This document shows positions 1-16,018 of a stretch of DNA of 26,759 nt, piece by piece. Below the pieces are notes generated by a model that saw nothing but the letters and a program-made list of their open reading frames with translations, made no database searches and was not told the DNA's origin. Made by a program: the position numbers and the translations under genes. The stretch's first letter is position 1, and every line of letters begins with the position of its first letter. This DNA comes from a virus (lineage: Duplodnaviria > Heunggongvirae > Uroviricota > Caudoviricetes): positions 1 through 26,759 of IMG/VR virus record IMGVR_UViG_2531839665_000020; one strand, 5' to 3'.

Positions 1-381
1 ATGCAGAAAAATGTGACTCCCGGCAGGCGAAAAGGCTGCCCTAATTATCCTCCCGAATTTAAACAGCAGCTCGTTGCTGCCTCCTGTGAACCCGGGATAT
101 CCATCTCAAAACTTGCTCTTGAAAATGGCATTAACGCCAATCTGTTGTTCAAATGGCGACAACAATGGCGCGAGGGAAAGCTGCTATTACCTTCTTCAGA
201 GAGCCCCCAGCTACTTCCTGTGACTCTCGATGCAGCTGCCGAACAGCCAGAATCGCTCGCAGAGGACCCGGAAACCCTCAGTATCAGCTGTGAGGTAACG
301 TTCCGGCACGGGACGCTCCGCTTCAATGGCAATGTCAGCGAAAAGCTCCTGACTCTGCTGATACAGGAACTGAAGCGATGA
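1..381 (+). CDS. IS66-family accessory protein orfA (TnpA-like)
   Basis: 126-aa ORF starting at base 1; N-terminal helix-turn-helix-like region (KQQLVAASCEPGISISKLALENGINANLLFKWRQQW) typical of IS66 orfA; stop overlaps the orfB start (ATGA at 378-381). Confidence 0.85.
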   Translation: MQKNVTPGRRKGCPNYPPEFKQQLVAASCEPGISISKLALENGINANLLFKWRQQWREGKLLLPSSESPQLLPVTLDAAAEQPESLAEDPETLSISCEVTFRHGTLRFNGNVSEKLLTLLIQELKR

Positions 382-725
382 TCCCGTTACCTTCCGGGAC
401 CAAAATTTGGCTGGTTGCCGGTATCACCGATATGAGAAATGGCTTCAACGGCCTGGCTGCGAAAGTACAGACGGCGCTGAAAGACGATCCCATGTCCGGC
501 CATGTTTTCATTTTCCGGGGCCGCAGCGGCAGTCAGGTTAAACTGCTGTGGTCCACCGGTGACGGGCTGTGCCTCCTGACCAAACGGCTGGAGCGTGGGC
601 GCTTCGCCTGGCCGTCAGCCCGTGATGGCAAAGTGTTCCTTACGCAGGCGCAGCTGGCGATGCTGCTGGAAGGTATCGACTGGCGACAGCCTAAGCGGCT
701 GCTGACCTCCCTGACCATGCTGTAA
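378..725 (+). CDS. IS66-family orfB (TnpB)
   Basis: 115-aa ORF with IS66 TnpB signature ([22 protein letters not shown] ... FIFRGRSG); translationally coupled to orfA. Confidence 0.9.
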
Positions 726-774
726 ATCTCTTTATCCTGGTTGTCACAGAATAAGCCCGGTAAAATACGGGCTT

Positions 775-2313
775 ATGAACGACATCTCTTCTGACGACAT
801 CTTCCTGCTGAAACAGCGCCTGGCCGAACAGGAAGCGCTGATCCACGCCCTGCAGGAAAAGCTGAGCAACCGGGAGCGCGAAATAGACCATCTGCAGGCG
901 CAGCTGGATAAACTCCGCCGGATGAACTTCGGCAGTCGTTCCGAAAAAGTCTCCCGCCGTATCGCACAAATGGAAGCCGATCTGAACCGGCTTCAGAAAG
1001 AGAGCGATACGCTGACTGGTAGGGTGTATGACCCGGCAGTACAGCGTCCGTTGCGTCAGACCCGCACCCGTAAGCCGTTCCCTGAATCACTACCCCGTGA
1101 CGAAAAGCGACTGTTGCCTGCGGCGCCGTGCTGCCCGAACTGCGGCGGTTCACTGAGCTATCTGGGCGAGGATACCGCCGAACAGCTGGAGTTGATGCGT
1201 AGCGCCTTCCGGGTTATCCGGACGGTACGGGAAAAACATGCCTGTACTCAGTGCGATGCCATCGTGCAGGCACCTGCACCTTCGCGGCCCATCGAGCGGG
1301 GTATCGCCGGACCGGGGCTGCTGGCCCGCGTGCTGACCTCGAAGTATGCAGAGCACACCCCGCTGTATCGCCAGTCAGAAATATACGGCCGGCAAGGTGT
1401 GGAGCTGAGGCGTTCACTGCTGTCGGGCTGGGTGGATGCATGCTGCCGGCTGCTGTCTCCGCTGGAAGAGGCGCTTCATGGCTATGTCATGACTGACGGC
1501 AAACTCCATGCCGATGATACCCCGGTCCAGGTACTGCTGCCGGGTAATAAGAAGACGAAGACCGGGCGGTTGTGGGCGTATGTTCGTGATGACCGCAATG
1601 CAGGGTCAGCGTTGGCACCTGCAGTGTGGTTCGCTTACAGCCCGGACAGAAAAGGCATCCATCCGCAGACTCATCTTGCCTGCTTCAGCGGTGTGCTGCA
1701 AGCGGATGCGTACGCCGGGTTCAACGAGCTGTATCGCAATGGTGGGATAACGGAAGCTGCCTGCTGGGCTCATGCCCGCCGAAAGATCCACGATGTGCAC
1801 GTCCGCATCCCGTCAGCACTGACGGAAGAAGCCCTGGAGCAGATCGGTCAGTTGTACGCCATAGAGGCGGATATAAGGGGAATGCCGGCAGAGCAGCGGC
1901 TTGCTGAACGTCAGCGAAAAACGAAACCGTTGTTGAAATCCCTGGAAAGCTGGTTGCGTGAAAAGATGAAGACCCTGTCGCGACACTCAGAGTTGGCGAA
2001 GGCGTTCGCGTACGCACTTAACCAGTGGCCGGCACTGACGTACTATGCGAACGATGGCTGGGTGGAAATCGACAACAACATCGCTGAAAATGCCCTGCGG
2101 GCGGTCAGTCTGGGTCGTAAAAACTTCCTGTTCTTCGGCTCTGATCATGGTGGTGAGCGGGGAGCGCTACTGTACAGCCTGATCGGGACGTGCAAACTGA
2201 ATGACGTGGATCCAGAAAGCTACCTTCGCCATGTGCTTGGCGTCATAGCAGACTGGCCGGTCAACCGGGTCAGCGAACTGCTTCCGTGGCGCATAGCACT
2301 GCCAGCTGAATAA
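775..2313 (+). CDS. IS66-family transposase (orfC)
   Basis: 512-aa ORF with N-terminal leucine-rich coiled coil, CxxC...CxxC zinc-finger region and DDE-type core, following orfA/orfB as in IS66. Confidence 0.9.
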
Positions 2314-2396
2314 CACATCCCCGTCAATACGGCCCTCGCTGTACGCTTACGGTATTTCTGACTCATGGCCGTTTTTATAATGCGGCCAGGTGTTTT

Positions 2397-2747
2397 TTAC
2401 AACATTGTCAGGGCGTTAAGGCGGGATGTTTTTGGCTGACGCCAGTCCAGCTTATCGAGGAGCATTGCCAGTTGCGAGCGGGTAATGGATACCTTACCGT
2501 CACGCACCGCAGGCCAGATAAACTGGCCTTCCTCCAGGCGTTTGGTGAACAGGCACAGACCATCAGCATCAGCCCAAAGAATTTTAACGGTGTCCCCCCG
2601 TCGGCCACGGAAGATAAACAGGTGACCGGAGAAGGGATTATCATTCAGCACATGTTGTACCTGTTCTCCCAGTCCGTTGAAGGATTTACACATATCGGTA
2701 ACGCCGGCAACGAGCCAGATACGGGTACCTGATGGGAGTGAAATCAT
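2397..2747 (-). CDS. IS66-family orfB (TnpB), second copy
   Basis: 116 aa, MISLPSGTRIWLVAGVTDMCKSFNGL..., clearly paralogous to the 378..725 product but diverged. Confidence 0.85.
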   Translation of the reverse strand: MISLPSGTRIWLVAGVTDMCKSFNGLGEQVQHVLNDNPFSGHLFIFRGRRGDTVKILWADADGLCLFTKRLEEGQFIWPAVRDGKVSITRSQLAMLLDKLDWRQPKTSRLNALTML

Positions 2748-3169
2748 CTTCCCCTCCCGCTCAGTTCGCGGATTAACATCGTGAGCAGCTCTGGCGATGG
2801 ATTTTCCAGCGTCATGTTACCGTGACGGAATTCCACCTTGCAGGAACTGGCACTGACTCTGGTCTGAGTGGAAGTGGATAAAGACGGCGCAATGGCCGCC
2901 ACAGGTTCTTTCTGCTCATCCGGCGTTATTTCTACAGGTAATAATTCAACGCCAGTGTCAGAAGAGGTTGTTACCGGAAGACGCCGCGAAACATGCCCTT
3001 CGTTCTGCCAGAGCCTGAGCCATTTGAAAATAACATTATCATTGACGCCATTTTCTCGTGCAATCTGTGTAACACAAGCTCCAGGTTGTGATGCCAGTTC
3101 AACCATACGAAGTTTGAATTCATTCGAATACTTTTTACGAGGTTCTTTTCGCCAGTCCTGTAATTCCAT
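2744..3169 (-). CDS. IS66-family orfA, second copy
   Basis: 141 aa with the same HTH-like motif (EFKLRMVELASQPGACVTQIARENGVNDNVIFKWLRLW); ATGA-type overlap with downstream orfB. Confidence 0.8.
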   Translation of the reverse strand: MELQDWRKEPRKKYSNEFKLRMVELASQPGACVTQIARENGVNDNVIFKWLRLWQNEGHVSRRLPVTTSSDTGVELLPVEITPDEQKEPVAAIAPSLSTSTQTRVSASSCKVEFRHGNMTLENPSPELLTMLIRELSGRGR

Positions 3170-3296
3170 ACTTAGATGTCCGTCTGTGTCAGATGGGCGT
3201 CTAAGTTACCAATTCTTGTCTAATGGCTACATACGGCGGTCGGTTTACGCTTACTCTAATTCGTCAGATTCTGACCAGACGGTTCAGGCTGTACGC

Positions 3297-3431
3297 TTAC
3301 GATTCTTTAGGCAGATAATAATTTTGATCAGCCCATTCAACTGCCGTCATTGGTACAACCCTGACCAGAGGCTGCAGCGCAACCGAAACGGCAGCCATCA
3401 TATTATTCAGTTGTTGCTCTGATATATTCAT
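3297..3431 (-). pseudogene. Terminase large subunit (gpA-like), N-terminal ~44 codons only, truncated by IS66 insertion
   Basis: Translation MNISEQQLNN...PMTAVEWADQNYYLPKES matches the lambda gpA N-terminus pattern (MNIS...TAVEWADANYYLPKES); the reading frame runs into the IS66 terminus at 3300 and stops at 3297; start overlaps the 3' end of the Nu1-like gene. Confidence 0.7.
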
Positions 3432-3912
3432 CGAGTAAATCCGGTAATTTATCCCCTGCCCGCGCACACTGATTTGCCCCCTTAGCAATAAGGGTTTTCA
3501 GATGGTCAAGATGGCGCGGTGTTAAATCAGGAAACTGTCGCTGCATGGATAAAGGGATGGAATCAAGCGTACTGGATAACGCCATTGCCAGCTTACTGAG
3601 GGCAAAAATACAGAACCCGGTGTCAATAAGTTTTCCTTTTGACACCTCATTTTTTAACTGCTGTGTAACAGCCTGTTCTGCTGTCAGTTCCCATCTGGCA
3701 ATAAGCAATTTCTCCTCATAGTCGTCTTCGCTATCGCCATCAGGCACATCGTTTTTACTTCTCCTCAGATACGATATGTAAAAATCGCGCCAGGCATCCA
3801 GATCCAGTTGCCCTCGCTTATTCGATATCGGGGCACCCGGCAATTTCTGCAATCTGCGAAGCTGGCGATCGGTCAGACTTAAATGCCTGGCAACTTCAGT
3901 CTGCGTAGCCAC
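3403..3912 (-). CDS. Terminase small subunit, Nu1-like
   Basis: 169 aa; C-terminal region (TGFCIFALSKLAMALSSTLDSIPLSMQRQFPDLTPRHLDHLK...LLDEYI) resembles Nu1/NohA; GTG start preceded by GAGGTGAGGA; cos site immediately upstream. Confidence 0.8.
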   Translation of the reverse strand: MATQTEVARHLSLTDRQLRRLQKLPGAPISNKRGQLDLDAWRDFYISYLRRSKNDVPDGDSEDDYEEKLLIARWELTAEQAVTQQLKNEVSKGKLIDTGFCIFALSKLAMALSSTLDSIPLSMQRQFPDLTPRHLDHLKTLIAKGANQCARAGDKLPDLLDEYIRATTE

Positions 3913-3954
3913 TCCTCACCTCGCAAAAACTCTCACCTCACAATCACAACAAAA

Positions 3955-4120
3955 CCGGTCATGTCCGGTTTACATGTCCGTTTTTTGCACATGTCCGGTT
4001 CACGGACAGCCTGTTTTTATATTTTTCATATAGTTAACTTGCAGAGAAACCGGACATGGATCCCGGAAAATTTTCATAAATAGCGAAAACCCGCGAGGTC
4101 GCCGCCCCGTAACCTGTCGG
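3955..4120 (-). other. cos site: cosN cohesive-end sequence (4096..4107) plus cosB-like repeated terminase-binding motifs (3955..4060)
   Basis: Reverse complement of 4052-4120 reads CCGACAGGTTACG/GGGCGGCGACCT/CGCGGGTTTTCGCTATTTATGAAAATTTTCCGG, matching the phage lambda right-end/left-end junction as I recall it; three direct CATGTCCG(G) repeats (3960, 3973, 3990) and one inverted copy (4050) lie between cosN and the Nu1-like gene. Confidence 0.85.
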
Positions 4121-4144
4121 ATCGCCGGAAAGGACCCGCAAAAA

Positions 4145-4159
4145 TGATAATAATTATCA
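4145..4159. promoter_or_regulatory. Perfect 7-1-7 palindrome TGATAATAATTATCA (Fur-box-like hexamer content)
   Basis: Inverted repeat read directly from sequence, about 150 bp upstream of the 4308 ORF and 40 bp from cosN. Confidence 0.3.
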
Positions 4160-4307
4160 TCTACATGTCACAACGTGCATCTACGCCATCAAACCACGTC
4201 AAATAATTAATTATGACGCAGGTATCGTATTAATTGATCTGCATCAACTTAACGTAAAAACAACTTCAGACAATACAAATCAGCGACACTGAATACGGGG
4301 CAACCTC

Positions 4308-4532
4308 ATGTCAACGAAGAACAGAACCCGCAGAAAAACAACCCGCAACATCCGCTTTCCTAACCAAATGATTGAACAAATTAACATCGCTCTTGATCAG
4401 AAAGGTTCAGGTAATTTTTCAGCGTGGGTTATTGAAGCCTGCAGAAGAAGATTAATTAATGAAAAACATGCTCAATTTGTACCCAACAAAGACAAACACG
4501 ACCAGAGCACCTGTTCAGACAGGTTTACTTAA
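4308..4532 (+). CDS. Small basic hypothetical protein (possible DNA-binding)
   Basis: 74-aa ORF, Arg/Lys-rich N-terminus (MSTKNRTRRKTTRNIRFPNQ); transcribed opposite to the late operon; no family recognised with confidence. Confidence 0.5.
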   Translation: MSTKNRTRRKTTRNIRFPNQMIEQINIALDQKGSGNFSAWVIEACRRRLINEKHAQFVPNKDKHDQSTCSDRFT

Positions 4533-4613
4533 ACGACTTATATATGACACAAAAAGCGACCACTAAAGTCGCTTTTTCTTATGGTAACAGGCAATAACGC
4601 TCTCAGATATTTT

Positions 4614-4928
4614 TTAGCATTTTTTTGACCGCGCGTTTCCGGACGTATTCTGTTCTCCTGTCCCTTTATATCGTCGGAATACCCGCCGCTCTTCAAATCC
4701 CATTCCCAACTCAGAATGTAGTCTGTTGACCGCTTGTTTTATTTCGGTCAGGTTCACCGGTGAAACCGGAGTCCGGCGCGCCTTACGCAAACACTCTGCT
4801 CGTTTCTGTGCCGCCACTTTTCTTTTCTGGTCATCACTTAGCTGTACCATCACTTTTGCCCATCGTTCAGCTGCTCTCCGGTACAGTCCTTTTTTCTCCA
4901 GACATTCTGCCACGTGATCATGTAGCAT
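4614..4928 (-). CDS. PerC-family transcriptional regulator (Pch-like)
   Basis: 104 aa; motif LEKKGLYRRAAERWAKVM matches the PerC/Pch signature; ATG preceded by GGAGG; long A-tract-rich region upstream. Confidence 0.7.
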   Translation of the reverse strand: MLHDHVAECLEKKGLYRRAAERWAKVMVQLSDDQKRKVAAQKRAECLRKARRTPVSPVNLTEIKQAVNRLHSELGMGFEERRVFRRYKGTGEQNTSGNARSKKC

Positions 4929-5100
4929 AAGTGACCTCCGATTATCTACAGACTGCCATCCTGAATTTACCTTCCCTTAATGAAATAACAATAAAAAACA
5001 AACCACGCAAAAACAATAAAATAACACACAAAAAAAACTAAATAATAAACAAAAATAATCACCTTATTTTATTATTTTTTGAGGGGGCAATTACTGAACA
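4929..5100 (-). promoter_or_regulatory. AT-rich, A-tract-rich upstream region of the PerC-like gene (probable promoter / curved DNA)
   Basis: Dense A-tracts (e.g. 4980-5090) directly upstream of the gene; compositionally unlike flanking DNA. Confidence 0.4.
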
Positions 5101-5393
5101 AAAAACGCTGACTATATACTCAAAACCAAACAACTATTCTGCCAATCAGGTATCATGGCAACACACGGAATTACCGTGTTTTTGCCTTCTCTGCCCATAC
5201 AATACGGGCATATACTTCATACTCTATTGTAATATTTCTATCCATGCGCCCCACTCCATTTACCTGTAAATAATATTCAAAATATTTATCACAGAAATCG
5301 TTTTTGTCCATGAACTGAGCACACTATAAAGTCCGGAACTGACTCTTTGTTAAATTACCTTAACGTTACCAGTAACACCTTCATAACAAAACA

Positions 5394-5861
5394 TCACGGT
5401 ATACACTGGGTACGGATATATTCCTGTGCTCCTTCCAGTTGCTTCTGCATTGCCATCAGCCGTTCTCTGAGGATGAAATAATCCCGTTCAGCGGCTTCTG
5501 CCAGTCGGGGACCGGTTGCATTATCCACGCCGGAGGTGATGGGGGCTTTACGCAAGGAGCCTGGACAGTTGGCGTTGATGCGCAGGCGCTTACGACCAGC
5601 GGCAACATCAGCACGCAGAGTTTCATTTTCAGCTCTCGCATCGGCTAATTCCCTCGAGTATCTGGCATCAAGTGCAGCGACATCACGCTGGCGTACCTGC
5701 ATATCAGTAATTGTCACGTTCGCCAGCTTCAGCTCACTGGCTTTTTTATCGCGTTGCGCTTTGTAGGTAATGGCGTTATCGCGGTAATGATTCAGCCCCA
5801 GACTAAGCACACCACAGGCTACCAGCAGGACAATAATCACCACACACAGAACACGGTTCAT
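5394..5861 (-). CDS. Rz: Spanin inner-membrane subunit Rz
   Basis: 155 aa; N-terminal TM segment followed by [25 protein letters not shown]...[10 protein letters not shown], a close match to lambdoid Rz. Confidence 0.9.
5456..5641 (-). CDS. Rz1: Spanin outer-membrane lipoprotein Rz1 (embedded in Rz, +1 frame)
   Basis: 61-aa ORF nested in Rz; lipoprotein signal (LPLVVSAC) then Pro-rich stretch ([16 protein letters not shown]) typical of Rz1; exact start (M1 vs M6) uncertain. Confidence 0.75.
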
Positions 5862-6012
5862 ATCCCCCTCACCCCACCAGCCATGACAAAGTTAAGACGC
5901 GCCAGGCAGTGGAAAAGCAAATAGCAACCAGCATTAGTGAAAATGAAATGCCGACGATTACACAGAGGATCTTCGCCAGCGTTATGAGCTTGTCTGACAT
6001 GCTTAATCCTCT

Positions 6013-6195
6013 TCACGATTTCAACGCAATGACCAGTTTTGCCAGCCCATACAGCATCGGAGACACAGCAATACCGACCGCCACCCACTTAATAGCAAAA
6101 GCCAGCGCTCTGCTGACGTCATCAGTTACAGGCGCTTTCAGTTCAAGGCCGTTTTTCATAGTCAATCTCAACAGAATTCGTTTATACTTTCCCAT
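6013..6195 (-). CDS. Small membrane protein (60 aa), unassigned, between R and Rz
   Basis: ATG at 6195 preceded by GGGAGAA; Lys-rich N-terminus and one C-terminal hydrophobic helix (IKWVAVGIAVSPMLYGLAKLVIAL); the longer ORF-track version (6013..6273) would read through the terminator hairpin, so the internal start is preferred. Confidence 0.4.
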   Translation of the reverse strand: MGKYKRILLRLTMKNGLELKAPVTDDVSRALAFAIKWVAVGIAVSPMLYGLAKLVIALKS

Positions 6196-6227
6196 GTTCT
6201 CCCTTGCCTTACTCAAGGTCAGAAACA

Positions 6228-6267
6228 CAAAACCCCGTTTGCGGCCAACAAACGGGGTTTTACTTTT
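6228..6267. terminator. Bidirectional rho-independent terminator
   Basis: Perfect 9-bp stem CCCCGTTTG / CAAACGGGG (6233-6241, 6249-6257) with 7-nt loop, A-run upstream and T-run downstream, so U-tract on either strand. Confidence 0.6.
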
Positions 6268-6350
6268 ATTCACTTAGTTTTTGCCAGTTCGCAGGATTTC
6301 GTGTTATCCGCCCGCGTTGGCCAACGTCATTTTTCAGCAAAATATTCTGC

Positions 6351-6884
6351 TTATCTGTCAATTCCCCAGCACGCCAGTGCACTTTCCTGGTCTCGCCGGG
6401 ATACCTGACCGTAGCAATTATTTGAGCGGATACGGCAGTCTCTGCCACCGTCCTTAATCCACCAGCGAATCGCTTCGCAGGCACCTTTTCGATCACCTGC
6501 ATTAATCCGTCTGTAAAACGTAGACGGGAAACACTTACCGGGGCCAATGTTATAAGGACAAAATGACGCGATACCCGCCTTCTGGGGTTCGGTCAGCGGT
6601 ACTTTAATATTGCGCTCCACCCACTCCAGCGCCTTATCACGTTCAATGGCGTTAACCTGGTCGCACTTTTCCTTCGATAACTTCATACCCGGGACGACAG
6701 GCTTACCATCCACTCGGGTGGCACCGCGGCAGATGGTCCAGATCCCCGCACCATCACGGTATGCCGTGGTGTGGTTACCTTCTTTTTCGTCAAGAAACTG
6801 GTCGAGGATTTCAGGCGCAGACGTCCCTGCACCAATCAGCGCCAGAACGGCAGCCGACAGGCCGTATCTGATTTTTGCGTTCAT
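6351..6884 (-). CDS. R: Endolysin R, SAR-type lysozyme (T4-lysozyme-like fold)
   Basis: 177 aa; N-terminal signal-anchor-release-like segment (YGLSAAVLALIGAGTSAP) and catalytic E/D/T region (EGNHTTAYRDGAGIWTI) as in phage 21 R. Confidence 0.9.
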   Translation of the reverse strand: MNAKIRYGLSAAVLALIGAGTSAPEILDQFLDEKEGNHTTAYRDGAGIWTICRGATRVDGKPVVPGMKLSKEKCDQVNAIERDKALEWVERNIKVPLTEPQKAGIASFCPYNIGPGKCFPSTFYRRINAGDRKGACEAIRWWIKDGGRDCRIRSNNCYGQVSRRDQESALACWGIDR

Positions 6885-7009
6885 GGATATTTATCAGGAT
6901 TTATCGGTTCCGGACCCCTGGATATGTTAAGTCTTCAGCCCGCCGGTGGTGGGCACTGGCGTAAACCCAACAATGTGAGATGGCTGCCTCGCAAAGATAA
7001 TGAACAGAT

Positions 7010-7273
7010 ATGAATGAAGAAAATACAGCGCTTTTTGACAGAATTTTCACTCTTGAGTTACAGGTCGGTTTTCTTCTCCCAAAGATAATCAAAGCCATGG
7101 ATGCACTTGGTAAGAATAACGCTGTGTCAGATTACCTGATCGCCGAAATGGAACATCTCATTAAAGAAATACCAAAGACCGATGCTCGTGATGATAAAAG
7201 ATTCCTCAGGGCTGCTGAAAATGCTCTTTCAACAGTGAAGCGCAGTTCAGGCGCGCAGCTAATTCAAGAATAG
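7010..7273 (+). CDS. Hypothetical protein (87 aa), convergent with the 7206..7736 gene
   Basis: AT-rich ORF with protein-like helical composition; weak SD; 3' end overlaps the opposite-strand gene by 68 bp. Confidence 0.45.
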   Translation: MNEENTALFDRIFTLELQVGFLLPKIIKAMDALGKNNAVSDYLIAEMEHLIKEIPKTDARDDKRFLRAAENALSTVKRSSGAQLIQE

Positions 7274-7736
7274 TTTCTTTCATTTCATCTGCTGCAAGCA
7301 CCTCATTTTTTGTTGGGGTGCTTTTTTTCAATTCAGTAACACAGCACTCCAGTTTTTCAATACGTGATTCAACATCATCTTTTTCTGACCGCAGTGTTGA
7401 CGGCGGCATCTTCAGAGAACAAGTAATTCTTCCCGGTAGCTTTCCTTTGTAGGTTATCAACACATCCTGCGCCTCTAAAATTACGGGGCGATTTTCCGGC
7501 AACGGACCATCCCCTTCACATAACCCGGCAGCAACATCCATGAAAAACTGCTTCGCCTGCTTTTTCGCCTCAGCTTCGTAAAACTCCAGCGTGGCACCTT
7601 CAGTACGGTCAAGACTAATCGCCACATCTGGCAACAACAGTGACGGATACCCACCAATTTCCAGTGCCACAGTAACAGTAATCTTATCCGGGTAATTATT
7701 TATCCCTTTAACAACCAGTTCGTATTTTTTCTTCAT
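7206..7736 (-). CDS. Hypothetical protein (176 aa) inserted between holin and endolysin
   Basis: ATG 5 bp downstream of the holin stop with GGAGAG SD (translationally coupled to S); lower-GC codon usage than flanking lysis genes; no domain recognised. Confidence 0.65.
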   Translation of the reverse strand: MKKKYELVVKGINNYPDKITVTVALEIGGYPSLLLPDVAISLDRTEGATLEFYEAEAKKQAKQFFMDVAAGLCEGDGPLPENRPVILEAQDVLITYKGKLPGRITCSLKMPPSTLRSEKDDVESRIEKLECCVTELKKSTPTKNEVLAADEMKETILELAARLNCASLLKEHFQQP

Positions 7737-7740
7737 CGCT

Positions 7741-7956
7741 TTACTCTCCCCGCGCCGCCTTACGACGGTCCTCTCTGATTTTGAAATACAGGTTAGTCAG
7801 ATATGTCAGCAGCCCAAACAGCAGACTCCCCAGCACGCCTATTGCCGCCCACTGAGACGGAGAGACTTTGTCCAGCAGCTGCAGGAACCAGTAGCCCGTT
7901 CCCACCGCTGACGTGGTGTATGACACACCTGTTGTGATTTTTTCCATCTGGTACAT
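7741..7956 (-). CDS. S: Class II holin / pinholin S (phage 21 S-like) with dual-start motif
   Basis: 71 aa [71 protein letters not shown], very close to S21; Met1/Met4 dual start. Confidence 0.9.
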
Positions 7957-8031
7957 ACCCCGTCTCTCGCAATCCGGAAGCTCACAACAACAGGAGGGGC
8001 ATCAGCTCACACCGACAGCCCCTGCGCATGG

Positions 8032-8301
8032 TTACATCATCATTTCGCCGTCAGGCTGAGGCTCACTGCTACCGTCAGGCTGAGACACGACGCCATCTGA
8101 AACAGCACTGTCACCCGCGCCGTCTTCAGGCTCAGGAGCAGCCGGTCCCCCCAGCAGCTCATCCAGAATGGCATCCACTTCAGCATCAAGACGCGCCTCA
8201 AGATTCTGGCGGAGTTGCTGTTTCAGTGCGCTTCTGACTTCTTCAGAGCGCAGGACGTCCTTCACTGCTTCAGCAGTGACCAGAGATTTTATTTCTGACA
8301 T
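8032..8301 (-). CDS. Acidic hypothetical protein (89 aa)
   Basis: Internal ATG at 8301 chosen because the longer ORF (to 8457) overlaps the upstream 60-aa gene; product MSEIKSLVTAEAVKD... with Asp/Glu/Pro-rich tail. Confidence 0.55.
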   Translation of the reverse strand: MSEIKSLVTAEAVKDVLRSEEVRSALKQQLRQNLEARLDAEVDAILDELLGGPAAPEPEDGAGDSAVSDGVVSQPDGSSEPQPDGEMMM

Positions 8302-8338
8302 GGGATTTTCTCGTTGAAAGGTGTTGTTAAGAAAGTTG

Positions 8339-8521
8339 CTACGAAATGAGAGGCTCTTCGGGTTTTGTTCCGGCTGACTGGCTGGCGCTGATTTTTTCCG
8401 CCGCCGCGGCATCAATCTTTTTGCGTATATAGTTCCGGATAACCTTATACCCGCCACTTACCAGATATAACGTGCACACCACCGTGCAGAAATACAATAA
8501 AATAAGCTGTACAAATCTCAT
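8339..8521 (-). CDS. Small membrane protein (60 aa)
   Basis: ATG preceded by GGGAGGG; single TM helix (LILLYFCTVVCTLYLVSGGY) followed by a basic tail. Confidence 0.5.
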   Translation of the reverse strand: MRFVQLILLYFCTVVCTLYLVSGGYKVIRNYIRKKIDAAAAEKISASQSAGTKPEEPLIS

Positions 8522-8668
8522 TATCCCTCCCGGTTATTGATATGGTGTTGACATCGTTAATACCTGTTGGTTAAAAAAGTGTCCTGCATGTTTTGCTTTG
8601 GATATAACGACATTTGCCGCCGGTTCTGGCTCCTTGTTTTCCCTGCCCCGGCGGCCTTTTTTTCCTGC

Positions 8669-10606
8669 TTACGGGTTATTCACTTCCACTGTTATACTTT
8701 CAATCAGCACCGGATATGTCGCACCGCTAGTGATATCGGTCACGCGCAATTTGTCTGCCGTAAACGTGCCGACCGGTGACTGTGACAGCATGAACGGCGT
8801 CCCGTCCTTACCATCAATGACCGGCGTCACCTCAATACTGTTGTTACCGGCAAAACGGAAGCCCAGCGTATGCCATTCGTTATCAAATGCGCCGAATGAC
8901 CCCAGCTTCGTGTTCTGACCAGCATTTCCCTTGTGGTACATCACATTAAGGTCTGTGGCATCGCTCTGTACGTAAAACGACGCCAGCAGGTTATGAGCGG
9001 CATTACCTTCCAGTGTGACGCCCTGAGGCAGTGAAGAAACCGGCCAGTACAGCGCCAGTGCGTACTGATTAGCTGTCAGTGTGCCATCAACTTTAAAACG
9101 ACAACTGATAAGCCCGCCCTTCTCCAGCAGGTCTGCGCCATTACCGGCATCATGCTGCATAAACCACGAGGAACTTCCTGTCTGTTTGGTCCACCTCAGC
9201 GCCTTACCTCCTGCAGCACCTGCATCATCAACTACCAATGCACGCCCTCCTTCAGCTCCCCATCCCTGCGGATTCAGTAAACCACCTGACTCTGTTGCAC
9301 GGTAATAAAGCAGCGTTGTCACTGATTTCCCGTCCGTTGACGGTGTTGATGGTGTGTCCGGTGACGGCTTCTCATCCGGCGGCATCACAACCTGTTCCCC
9401 ACCCACCAGTTCAGCCGTCCGTCCTGCATGGAGAAGAATCGCTGAGGCAAGACGGTCAGAAATAATCCCCCTGCGTGCCCATGAGCTGAAATGGCTCGCA
9501 CGGTCTGCTGACGTCCAGTTTGCCGACGTCCGGGAGGCCGCACCGTAATATCCTGATGCCGGAATATCCGGGTCTTCTTCCGGTTTGTTCGTCGGGACAT
9601 TTGCTCCGTTCTCATCGGTCATGAACGGCACAAAGTGAATATTCTTTTCCGTTTTGTTTTTGTAACTGCCGTACACCGTCTGGTAAGTGGATTCGCTCTT
9701 CTGCTTCCAGAAATAAGTTGTGTCTCCACATATCCAGGGAACACCGTCAGCAGAACCACCAGCGCACTGTCCCACCATATCTGCAAGGTCCGTACGATAT
9801 TGTTCCACTACTTCTGTAAAACGGGCTGTGTGATTTGCTGGCGTTCCGTCAAAGTCAAATTCCCCCTGCATCCACACCACGGCAAGCAGCACATTTTTCG
9901 GGTTCTTTGCCAGCGCGGCTTTTGTACGACCGATGAGATCCTTATACAGCGGCCTGCCCACACCCCAGCGGGTAGAACTCTCTGAGGCACCGGTCACGTC
10001 ACTGTATGTTCCATCTGCCCCGGTGGTGAAAGCTGAACCACCACGGCAGCACGGAACCAGAAGAATACCCGCATTCGCCGGTATAAACGGCAGCAGCTTT
10101 TTGGCAATATGCAGCCCCTGCCCCACGGTTCCGTACTGACCTTTCGACAGGTCAGCTTTCGGATGGTTAAGACGGCTCATGTCCTGTACATCATGCAGAC
10201 AGTGGTCTGCCGGAATAATGTCGTTATATTTACAGGGAGCGCCATCCGGCGTCACTGTGCTGCGACGAGCCAGTTGCTTTATACGCGGGTCAGGACGGTC
10301 ATATGTCTGCGGCAGAGGAAGCCCCTCACCGTAAGCCATGCCGTTCGACTGCCCGGCCAGTGGAATAACGTAGTAATAATCTGGCTCCGTGGTGACCACT
10401 CCCGGATAGCCACCATCCCCCGTGCCGGGCACAACCACTGGCGTGGTCACATCCCCCTCCGCGGCAATCGCCTGCATCAGGGTATAAGGGGTTATGGCCA
10501 CCGGACTACCAAACGGCTGCCAGCCCTCTTTCAGTTTGTGTGTCAGCTTTTCCGCAAGATCTGACGGCGACGCCGCCCTGACAACATCATAATGTTTAAT
10601 CGACAT
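8669..10606 (-). CDS. nanS-p: Prophage sialate O-acetylesterase NanS-p type (DUF1737 N-terminus + SGNH esterase + C-terminal lectin-like domain)
   Basis: 645 aa; GQSN esterase motif (VIPLAGQSNGMAYGEG); length and architecture match the NanS-p proteins found downstream of stx in EHEC prophages; ATG preceded by GGGAG. Confidence 0.9.
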   Translation of the reverse strand: MSIKHYDVVRAASPSDLAEKLTHKLKEGWQPFGSPVAITPYTLMQAIAAEGDVTTPVVVPGTGDGGYPGVVTTEPDYYYVIPLAGQSNGMAYGEGLPLPQTYDRPDPRIKQLARRSTVTPDGAPCKYNDIIPADHCLHDVQDMSRLNHPKADLSKGQYGTVGQGLHIAKKLLPFIPANAGILLVPCCRGGSAFTTGADGTYSDVTGASESSTRWGVGRPLYKDLIGRTKAALAKNPKNVLLAVVWMQGEFDFDGTPANHTARFTEVVEQYRTDLADMVGQCAGGSADGVPWICGDTTYFWKQKSESTYQTVYGSYKNKTEKNIHFVPFMTDENGANVPTNKPEEDPDIPASGYYGAASRTSANWTSADRASHFSSWARRGIISDRLASAILLHAGRTAELVGGEQVVMPPDEKPSPDTPSTPSTDGKSVTTLLYYRATESGGLLNPQGWGAEGGRALVVDDAGAAGGKALRWTKQTGSSSWFMQHDAGNGADLLEKGGLISCRFKVDGTLTANQYALALYWPVSSLPQGVTLEGNAAHNLLASFYVQSDATDLNVMYHKGNAGQNTKLGSFGAFDNEWHTLGFRFAGNNSIEVTPVIDGKDGTPFMLSQSPVGTFTADKLRVTDITSGATYPVLIESITVEVNNP

Positions 10607-11683: not shown

Positions 11684-12505
11684 CTATCTGGTCACCTTTT
11701 TCAGTTGTTGTTCTGCCCATGCTTCTTCAATATCAAACTGCACCACCAGCGTATCGTAAAAACGTTTAACTGTTTTTTTCCATGTATCAAGAGATATGGC
11801 ATCGGTTACATTACATATGGCATTAAATGCCTCCGTTGAAGGTAATCTTTCATAGCCACGACCACCACAACGCTGGCAGTCTCTGATAACAGGCATACCA
11901 CGTTTTACCGACTCTTCACGATGAATGGCAACACCGCGCCCACGACAATCTTTACAGGCGGTGGAAACCTCCCCCTTCCCTCCACACTCCGGACAGGCAA
12001 CTTTTACCACCTCCCTGACTTTTTTCCATTCCTCCCAGTAAGACGGATACACGCCTTTTGTGCACTTTGCCCACACTGGCGGCTTACCATCCGGATACTG
12101 GATCTTGTTTGTAAAAACCTCGCTTTCAATAAATTTTTTTCCGTGACAACAGGGGCACTGTTTTTTGCTCGCCGCGCTACGGGCATAATCTTCAAACGCA
12201 TACGAAGCCATAATACGCATCACTGCCGGTTTTATTTCTGCCGGGAGTTTTCTTAACGCCGCCACGCGATCACACCGACTGAGTGCATATTCTGTCAGCA
12301 ATTCTGTTGCCCGCTCTCTGTCATTCATACTAATGCCCATTTTCCCAAGGAACGCAGAAAACCCCATCTCAGCCCAATTCTGTGTCATGCCCTGCGCGGC
12401 CATCACATCAGTGATACTCAGCGTATCTTTCGACGTTGAGGCCGATGCATCAGTCAGGCCGGGGGATTTTGGGGAGTAGTATTTCGGTAAATCTTCCAGT
12501 TTCAT
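11684..12505 (-). CDS. Q: Late antiterminator Q (phage 82/21-type, zinc-binding)
   Basis: 273 aa with four CxxC motifs (CPCCHGKK, CPECGGKG, CKDCRGRG, CQRCGGRG) and overall similarity to 82-type Q; ATGA overlap with rusA stop. Confidence 0.85.
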   Translation of the reverse strand: MKLEDLPKYYSPKSPGLTDASASTSKDTLSITDVMAAQGMTQNWAEMGFSAFLGKMGISMNDRERATELLTEYALSRCDRVAALRKLPAEIKPAVMRIMASYAFEDYARSAASKKQCPCCHGKKFIESEVFTNKIQYPDGKPPVWAKCTKGVYPSYWEEWKKVREVVKVACPECGGKGEVSTACKDCRGRGVAIHREESVKRGMPVIRDCQRCGGRGYERLPSTEAFNAICNVTDAISLDTWKKTVKRFYDTLVVQFDIEEAWAEQQLKKVTR

Positions 12506-15259: not shown

Positions 15260-16018
15260 TCAAGTGCCTTTCCTGGTCCAGCCATATTTTTTGAATGCAG
15301 GCGCCGCTTCATCGGTTTGTAGCCATTCTGCAAATCGACGGGTTTCATCATTTGCATCCTGACGTACTGTAATGTTCATATCACGCCATATCACGTAGTC
15401 TGGCGCTATTTCCACGACATCACCAATTTCTGGATTACTGGCTGCCCAGTCAGCCCAGGTTATCCAGACATCTGCTTCAGGCTGATTCTCAAGAGCCTTA
15501 CGTGCAGTTCCGCTATTGGGCGCATATAAAATAATATTTTTTCGGATTGCGGCGACAGTTTCTATATTCCCTTTACGTCCGGCAATATCTTCCCAGACGC
15601 CAGTGCCTGATGTATTACTGGTACCACCACCATCATTAACAATTACGCCAATCCCGGGTCTGGTCAGGTCGTCAATACTCCGGATATTTTTAGGATTACC
15701 TTTCTTTACCAGTAAAATACTTTTTCGCAGATAAAGAGGCTGAATATCTTTTTCACTGAAGCTGTCTTTATGGTCCCGAATGATAGCCAGAGCAGATTGT
15801 TCTGATGCGCCAAACAAGATATCTGCATTTTTTTTGGCATCTTCATTCCATTTGTTCTGTGGGCCGTAATGAACGTTCACTATAATACCTGTTTTTTCGG
15901 CATAAAGTTTGGCTGCATCAAGCAAGGCTGTATGCGGGCCACCAGGACCATACAGATTGATATCAGCATAAGCAGCAGAAGACAGGAATATTAAAAAACC
16001 TGCCATTATGTTCCTCAT
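15260..16018 (-). CDS. Orphan periplasmic substrate-binding protein, ModA/TupA-like
   Basis: 252 aa; signal peptide (MAGFLIFLSSAAYA); ADILFGASEQSA and C-terminal AAPAFKKYGWTRK resemble E. coli ModA (ADLFISADQKW; AAEIFKRYGFTIK); no permease or ATPase gene adjacent. Confidence 0.8.
   Translation of the reverse strand: MRNIMAGFLIFLSSAAYADINLYGPGGPHTALLDAAKLYAEKTGIIVNVHYGPQNKWNEDAKKNADILFGASEQSALAIIRDHKDSFSEKDIQPLYLRKSILLVKKGNPKNIRSIDDLTRPGIGVIVNDGGGTSNTSGTGVWEDIAGRKGNIETVAAIRKNIILYAPNSGTARKALENQPEADVWITWADWAASNPEIGDVVEIAPDYVIWRDMNITVRQDANDETRRFAEWLQTDEAAPAFKKYGWTRKGT

Follow-up and report, generated by a model that had tools for sequence, protein, structure and literature searches.

Which packaging specificity belongs to a cos site that has the cohesive end of phage lambda, but whose flanking repeats and small terminase differ from those of lambda? 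The question is raised by a 26,759-nucleotide stretch of Caudoviricetes DNA (IMG/VR record IMGVR_UViG_2531839665_000020, positions 1 to 26,759), called the window below, in which an earlier note had recognised a lambda-like cosN next to unfamiliar cosB repeats and a diverged Nu1-like protein. Our analysis points to the cos of a lambda-like prophage, in which a cosQ-cosN-I2 segment of the lambda large terminase (TerL)-dependent type is combined with a cosB and a small terminase (TerS) that probably belong to another specificity class, and we give this reading a probability of roughly 0.85. The cos is read on the minus strand, with lambda left-end base pair (bp) N at window position 4108-N; sites of the window carry a prime, and the coordinates are collected in Table 1.

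The cosN side was compared with lambda (PV340536) without gaps, using the cohesive end GGGCGGCGACCT as anchor. The match to the lambda ends, put at about 57 bp in the earlier note, proved to be slightly underestimated, since the exact run is 61 bp long, and 76 of 77 positions are identical when it is extended to window 4138 with cosQ included. By BLAST, window 4063-4320 is lambda-like throughout, with 95.7% identity to lambda and up to 99.6% to other lambdoid phages such as PhiR34_1, and beyond left-end bp 45 (left of window 4063) lambda homology is absent. The cohesive end with its flanking symmetry and the cosQ about 30 bp upstream of the nick are features of a lambda-like cos. cosQ has a role in packaging termination (PMC4669245), and its GGGTCCT upstream of cosN is also kept in most distant relatives. 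On the minus strand, from window 4330 to 3400, a DUF3950 (YlcI/YnfO) gene, cosQ, cosN, cosB and a Nu1-family gene follow each other in the order of the lambda chromosome junction.

To the left of this block the repeats expected in cosB were found, and they are clustered. The motif CATGTCCG is present in three direct copies (3960, 3973 and 3990) and one inverted copy (4051-4058); the rest of the window has one more copy, and 0.9 copies would be expected over its full 26.7 kb. All five matches in the window to CATGTCCGGTT with at most one mismatch lie inside 3953-4058. The annotated record of phage 21 places R3 at bp 50-65, R2 at bp 107-122, R1 at bp 150-165 and the start of gene 1 at bp 189, and R3 of lambda is likewise at bp 50-65 (PMC9026076). 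Both complex and simple cosB architectures have been described (PMC4669245), and the layout in the window, with R3', an I1-like element, an inverted R2' and an R1' region, appears to be that of a complex lambda-type cosB. The I1-like element has two mismatches to the consensus WATCAANNNNTTR of integration host factor (IHF), while I1 of lambda and of 21 each score one.

The gene beside cosB is predicted to encode a Nu1-family small terminase with an N-terminal winged helix-turn-helix, whose recognition helix reads L-T-D-R-Q-L-R-R-L-Q. The divergence from lambda Nu1 that had been noticed earlier is strongest in the N-terminal part of the protein: BLASTP aligns only residues 73-164 with lambda Nu1 (46% identity) and residues 64-166 with 21 gp1 (40%), and the match to N15 gp1 comprises only residues 59-164 (43%). 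The first 60 residues are 19% identical to lambda Nu1 or 21 gp1 when aligned with MAFFT, with the scaffold residues Ala, Arg, Pro, Asp and Tyr kept and a wing five residues shorter than that of lambda Nu1. PF07471 (Phage_Nu1) is matched with 67.9 bits (cut-off 30) over residues 49-150 only, and phrog_57 over residues 1-169 (E 1.7e-55). The N-terminal 60 residues alone match phrog_57 positions 12-71 (E 3.4e-10), and since this is the same region as that matched by the N-termini of lambda Nu1 and 21 gp1, the N-terminus of TerS is taken to be a homologue of the Nu1 DNA-binding domain. In a tblastn search of 50,697 phage records, alignments took in the N-terminal 60 residues only for PhiR12 phages (99.4%), for a small number of Pseudomonas and Aeromonas phages (31-43%) and for the E. 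coli phage record vB_EcoM-705R4 (33%), and not for lambda, 21, N15, phi80 or Gifsy-1. Homologues of the protein begin with MATQ at the same codon. Other TerS homologues, whose match is limited to the C-terminal 60-85% of the query, may reflect exchange of the DNA-binding domain. In an AlphaFold2 model (predicted local distance difference test score 77) residues 3-9, 14-21 and 37-53 are helical, with a loop before the last of these helices. Structure searches were non-significant, with MerR-family proteins and RppC ranking top; the DNA-binding domain of RppC resembles that of TerS-lambda (PMC9026076). A sequence comparison with PDB chains did not match the Nu1 DNA-binding domain.

The conservation of the sites was followed in 155 loci with an identical recognition helix, which represent 59 distinct cos sequences. 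R3' is the sole multi-base segment in which no column varies; R2' reaches 98% conservation, and the R1' core ACCGGACA is invariant. The spacers differ between the variants, and most relatives have a degenerate middle copy (CAGACATG, TAGACACT, TGTACAAAC), whose mean conservation is 78%. Three of the four perfect copies thus seem to be under constraint and the fourth is probably not; the middle copy is probably accessory or fortuitous. The suggestion that the repeats are terminase-binding sites therefore receives comparative support for three of them, and is weakened for the middle one. The cohesive end GGGCGGCGACCT is also found in nearly all of the 59 variants, with L174 and L182 from IMG/VR among the exceptions.

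The proposal that the sites had co-varied with the small terminase can be judged from loci with other recognition helices. Enteric variants from E. coli, Klebsiella, Salmonella, Citrobacter and Enterobacter were taken from contigs encoding TerS relatives and from IMG/VR; a scan of genome contigs for TerS relatives gave distant ones only (Pseudomonas, alphaproteobacteria) and no enteric ones. Each enteric locus has one variant, ATG-, ATT- or ACT-TCCGGTT, at both its R3-position site and its inverted R2-position site, and this variant tracks the recognition helix. Helices of the form LT(D/E)RQLRRL go with ATG-TCCGGTT, the helix ITERWLRDL with ACT-TCCGGTT, and the helices LTERRLRDL, LTDRQLRNL, ITERQLRNL and ITARRVRDL with ATT-TCCGGTT, while for QQAVSAL-type helices the motif is absent and other repeats are found instead. 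Helices with Arg20 (four enteric variants and L122) have a G before TCCGGTT at both forward and inverted sites; L122 is a distant Pseudomonas-type locus with a DRHLRRL helix and the tandem TGTCCG-TGTCCGGTT. Where residue 20 is Asp, Asn, Thr, Ser, Lys or Glu, a T precedes TCCGGTT (ATT, ACT, GCT, GGT). These sequences support co-variation of site and terminase. The geometry is also kept: in 13 diverse loci the R3 core and the inverted R2 core lie exactly 47 bp apart in spite of differing spacer sequence, and most of these loci have an IHF-consensus match with no or one mismatch at a single fixed offset, which is the offset of the I1-like element in the window.

Taken together, the conservation, the concerted change of the sites, their link to the helix and the fixed geometry point to an arrangement like that of lambda, in which a TerS dimer binds R3' and R2' on either side of an IHF-type bend. 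In such a mechanism TerS would bind the CATGTCCGGTT sites at the R3 position (bp 50-61), at the inverted R2 position 47 bp away and at the R1 position, an IHF-type bend in the A/T-rich spacer would join R3' and R2' for the TerS dimer, and the C-terminus of TerS would place TerL on cosN for the staggered nicks. The packaging specificity would then be distinct from those of lambda, 21 and N15.

Several points weigh against this interpretation. The evidence for binding and specificity is comparative, and the co-variation comes from few independent lineages, since most of the 164 Arg20 loci are closely related. In a scan of the window with the IHF consensus no match with at most one mismatch lies within cosB, where the I1-like element has two. 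CATGTC is shared with the R consensus CATGTCGGnCCTT of phage 21, so that, judged by sequence, cross-recognition with 21 may be possible. The prophage is furthermore defective, with gpA truncated, and the function of the site may be vestigial here.

One competing explanation is that cosB is simply of the phage 21 type, with 21 packaging specificity and nothing beyond the lambda/21 pair. The 21 R boxes tttCATGTCGGgcctt (R1) and ttCATGTCGGaccttt (R2, inverted) share CATGTC with the sites of the window, and R2 of 21 (bp 107-122) nearly coincides with R2' (bp 108-118). However, the sites have only CATGTC in common with the R consensus of 21; their 3' half reads CGGTT here and GGnCCTT in 21, and relative to cosN the R3 core lies 3 bp out of register. 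The recognition helices differ as well (TDRQLRRLQK in the window, DPRTIERWQS in 21), neither tblastn nor BLASTP detects any similarity of the TerS N-terminus to 21 gp1, and the identity of the first 60 residues is low. Identity with phage 21 (record M81255) was rejected, since its R sites resemble those of the window without being identical and BLAST shows no relationship between the TerS DNA-binding domains, and we consider 21 specificity very improbable. Lambda specificity is likewise contradicted by the absence of the lambda R sequences (CGTTTCCtTTCT) and by the different helix.

A combination of a familiar cosN with a foreign cosB is also known from satellites, as phage-inducible chromosomal islands (PICIs) retain cosQ and cosN together with their own cosB (PMC6739421, PMC9026076), and the region could be such a cos, with helper cosQ and cosN and an own cosB read by an island-encoded redirecting protein. 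The gene content led us to reject a PICI or Rpp-type satellite, and we give it the smallest chance of all the alternatives: the protein of the window is a full-length member of the Nu1 family, including the C-terminal region that is missing from Rpp proteins, gpA, gpW and portal genes lie downstream of TerS in all relatives examined, and the genes on either side are the lysis and late genes usual for lambdoid prophages. The loss of TerL is due to a recent insertion sequence (IS), and in a related O103:H2 prophage another IS has inserted at a different place. The cosB is moreover complex (R3-I1-R2-R1), whereas that of PICIs is described as a single site. It could finally be argued that the repeats are operator or promoter elements for a transcription factor controlling the head operon, or the divergent DUF3950 and PerC genes, and have nothing to do with packaging. 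They do sit in an intergenic region of about 400 bp between divergent genes, and repeated and inverted 11-mers are typical of operators. Against this, they lie as far from the nick as R3, R2 and R1 do in lambda and 21, the R3'-cosN distance and the 47-bp spacing are fixed, the repeats co-vary with the adjacent TerS helix across genera, and TTCCGGTT repeats are retained between cosN and terS in distant relatives despite different neighbouring genes; a purely regulatory role is hardly credible, about as little as 21 specificity.

A lambda-like cos with a cosB and TerS of another class is also in agreement with the distribution of the module. The cosB and TerS are 97.8% identical in five deposited phage genomes (PhiR12_1, _2, _2_star, _4 and _5), and 97.8-100% identical when PhiR12_1/2/4/5 (PV340549-PV340554) and the TerS genes of lambdoid prophages in Shiga toxin-producing E. 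coli (STEC; O157:H7, O103, O145) and other E. coli are considered. The PhiR12 TerS protein is 99.4% identical, the cosB of these phages and prophages is unannotated and the PhiR12 records are circularly permuted. The PhiR12 phages have an intact gpA, and their genes run in the order TerS, gpA, gpW, portal. Six TerS variants with 60-81% identity, originating from E. coli, Klebsiella, Salmonella, Enterobacter and one unassigned read set, all show the same order, and the gpA genes of the relatives are intact, with GpA_ATPase and GpA_nuclease domains. Copies covering at least 80% of the query are present in 1149 of 5426 complete E. coli genomes, including O157:H7, O103 and O145 strains, at a median of two and a maximum of six places per genome, and the genome annotations name the TerS merely "terminase small subunit".

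The description of the locus as a mosaic packaging module is supported by where the two homologies end: that to lambda stops at bp 45, and that to PhiR12 covers cosB and TerS, so that the window is lambda-type to the right of bp 45 and PhiR12-type to the left of it. Right of cosQ, PhiR12 and the window differ, the right-end flank of PhiR12 being non-lambda, and PhiR12 has two substitutions in I2. In L174 and L182, R3', R2', R1' and the TerS helix are kept and the cohesive end is different (GGGCGGCAGACG in L174, another variant in L182). Since the same cosB and TerS are thus paired with other cohesive ends, cosB/TerS and cosN evidently reassort, and the conserved cosQ-cosN-I2 block serves as a junction between modules. 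Variation in bp 7-12 of the cohesive end is common (PMC4669245).

Two observations on the architecture of related sites may be added. In one IMG/VR contig (among L033-L112) R2' is fused directly to R1' (GAACCGGACATGACCGGTTTT), with the spacer and the middle copy deleted, as would result if R sites had undergone unequal crossing-over, a process proposed in the literature for the origin of the simple cosB of N15. Distant TerS relatives (28-49% identity; L004-L019, L121-L124 and L161-L169, from Pseudomonas, Azospirillum and other Pseudomonadota) mostly keep GGGTCCT, several of them have a TATGAAAATT-like spacer, and just upstream of terS they carry tandem direct TTCCGG/TTCCGC repeats (e.g. GGTTCCGCTTCCGGTT), without an inverted copy or an IHF-like spacer; these repeats look like a simple cosB with the same core motif.

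The lambda cos (cosQ-cosN-I2-R3-I1-R2-R1, with gpNu1/gpA) has the same cosQ, cohesive end and left-end bp 1-45 as the window and the same order and spacing of sub-sites, but its R sites are CGTTTCCtTTCT instead of CATGTCCGGTT, and the window differs in its palindromic R1' and the extra middle copy. The principle is that of phage 21, which has an alternative specificity with a lambda-identical cosN; there too cosQ and cosN are shared, and cosB and the TerS helix differ (PMC4669245). Different R sites and recognition helices underlie the difference in specificity between lambda and 21, and the N15/Monarch prophage group, likewise with its own R3 and recognition helix, represents a further specificity; N15 has a single R3 and a simple cosB (PMC4669245). 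The DNA-binding domain here differs from that of N15, and the cohesive ends are those of lambda and not of N15. The class in the window thus appears, from its sequence, to be none of lambda, 21, N15, phi80 and Gifsy-1. Its R sites share CATGTC with 21 and TTCCG with lambda, which is consistent with common ancestry of all R sites. In the searchable literature no description of this cosB/TerS class was found, the only papers retrieved on such sites in prophages being those of Feiss and of Penades, and queries with the motif strings and "PhiR12" gave only unrelated primer sequences.

Table 1. Positions of the cos sub-sites and of other features in the window (left-end bp, lambda numbering; aa, amino acids)
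Feature	Window position	Strand	Left-end bp	Remarks
Lambda-identical block	4063-4123	minus		61 bp exact: cohesive end flanked by the final 16 bp of the right end and by left-end bp 13-45 (I2 spacer)
cosN core, 12-nt cohesive end GGGCGGCGACCT	4096-4107	minus		From the anchored comparison
cosQ GGGTCCT	4131-4137	minus		24-30 bp before the nick; same as lambda and phage 21 in the anchored comparison
R3' CATGTCCGGTTT	4047-4058	minus	50-61	R3 position of lambda and 21 (bp 50-65; phage 21 annotation, PMC9026076)
I1-like element TAACTATATGAAA	4024-4036	minus	72-84	Putative IHF bend site in A/T-rich tract; annotated I1 of phage 21 at bp 72-86
R2' CATGTCCGGTT	3990-4000	plus	108-118	Inverted relative to R3'; reads AACCGGACATG in lambda orientation; R2 of phage 21 at bp 107-122
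Middle copy CATGTCCGTTT	3973-3983	plus	125-135	
R1' region AACCGGACATGACCGGTT	3953-3970		138-155	Imperfect palindrome; CATGTCCGGTT on plus at 3960-3970, CATGACCGGTT on minus at 3953-3963
TerS, Nu1 family, 169 aa	3403-3912	minus		GTG start at bp 196 (lambda Nu1: 191); Pfam Phage_Nu1, phrog_57
gpA (large terminase) remnant	3301-3431	minus		First 43 codons; PhiR12_1 gpA alignment ends at 3301
Nested IS66-family elements cutting gpA	1-3300			Terminal repeat GTAAGCG at 3294-3300
Outer IS66-family element	tnpA 2744-3169, tnpB 2397-2747	minus		Pfam IS66 Orf2, DDE_Tnp_IS66
ISEc8	~1-2353	plus		Inside the outer IS66-family element; 99.9% to copies in Stx2 phages
YlcI/YnfO (DUF3950) gene	4308-4532	plus		Right-end side of cos; annotated YlcI/YnfO in STEC O103:H2
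PerC-family transcriptional activator	4614-4928	minus		Pfam PerC E 3.8e-44; about 500 bp from cos, lysis-gene side; PerC family regulator in STEC O103:H2
645-aa DUF1737/SASA esterase/DUF6645 protein	8669-10606	minus		Between Q antiterminator (11684-12505) and lysis genes
Periplasmic solute-binding-fold open reading frame	15260-16018	minus		Pfam SBP_bac_11 E 1.6e-34; faint NCBIfam matches to sulfate-binding proteins
DicA-type repressor	19962-20369	plus		NCBIfam PRK09706, 236 bits
Exonuclease VIII (RecE-like), 805 aa	22704-25121	plus		Rv2179c-like exoribonuclease domain
Tyrosine recombinase	25464-26759	plus		Runs off the window end

The large terminase gene is interrupted in the window. The gpA ATG lies at 3431, with the gene start overlapping terS by 29 nt, and the reading frame is cut by the nested IS66-family elements. 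Because gpA has been destroyed by IS insertion, the prophage would lack a terminase holoenzyme of its own and its cos would be usable only in trans. The nearest genomes are STEC O103:H2 and O121 (99.9% over 3301-9000), and the closest relative is a locus of E. coli O103:H2 CEC12044 (L251; NZ_AP038983.1 2068885-2083583), which is 99.9% identical over 5.7 kb. Its gpA is also truncated, but at another place, where an IS3-family element has inserted after about 1.17 kb of the gene; nleG7 lies a few kb further on, and the terminase thus appears to have been inactivated independently within one prophage lineage. Type III secretion system effector genes adjoin the prophage in relatives.

Among the flanking genes, the DUF3950 gene is syntenic with lambda and in the same orientation, as lambda has a minus-strand reading frame in the same place; an inversion of this gene relative to lambda was considered and rejected for that reason. 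The PerC-family gene is presumably of the Pch type, which activates the locus of enterocyte effacement in enterohaemorrhagic E. coli. The interval between Q and the lysis genes, which holds the 645-aa protein, is the location of stx and nanS-p in Stx phages, and no stx gene was seen in the list of open reading frames of the window. The solute-binding reading frame inside the early/late region is unusual cargo for a lambdoid prophage. With the repressor, the exonuclease and the recombinase present, the window extends over most of a prophage, from cos to integrase.

Packaging specificity decides which DNA a terminase puts into capsids. It is tempting to speculate, though we hold the combined proposal to be doubtful, that the module represents an experimentally uncharacterised specificity, that the base before TCCGGTT may be set by one residue (Arg20 for G, Asp or Asn20 for T), and that, since several lambdoid prophages residing together in STEC genomes share the class, prophages lacking TerL, such as this one with its PerC/Pch regulator, could be cut and packaged in trans by a sibling of the same specificity, as helper-dependent mobilisable elements. 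The locus is in other respects an ordinary instance of the pattern known from lambda, 21 and N15; the mechanism is not new, and the class is common and previously uncharacterised. Overall, this class of cosB and TerS extends the lambda/21/N15 series, a model for viral genome recognition, and leaves the known mechanism unchanged. The co-variation of helix and site offers a simple testable recognition rule for a TerS class found in about one fifth of complete E. coli genomes, and the sharing of the class predicts which lambdoid prophages in E. coli pathogens can cross-package or recombine, including defective carriers of virulence genes.
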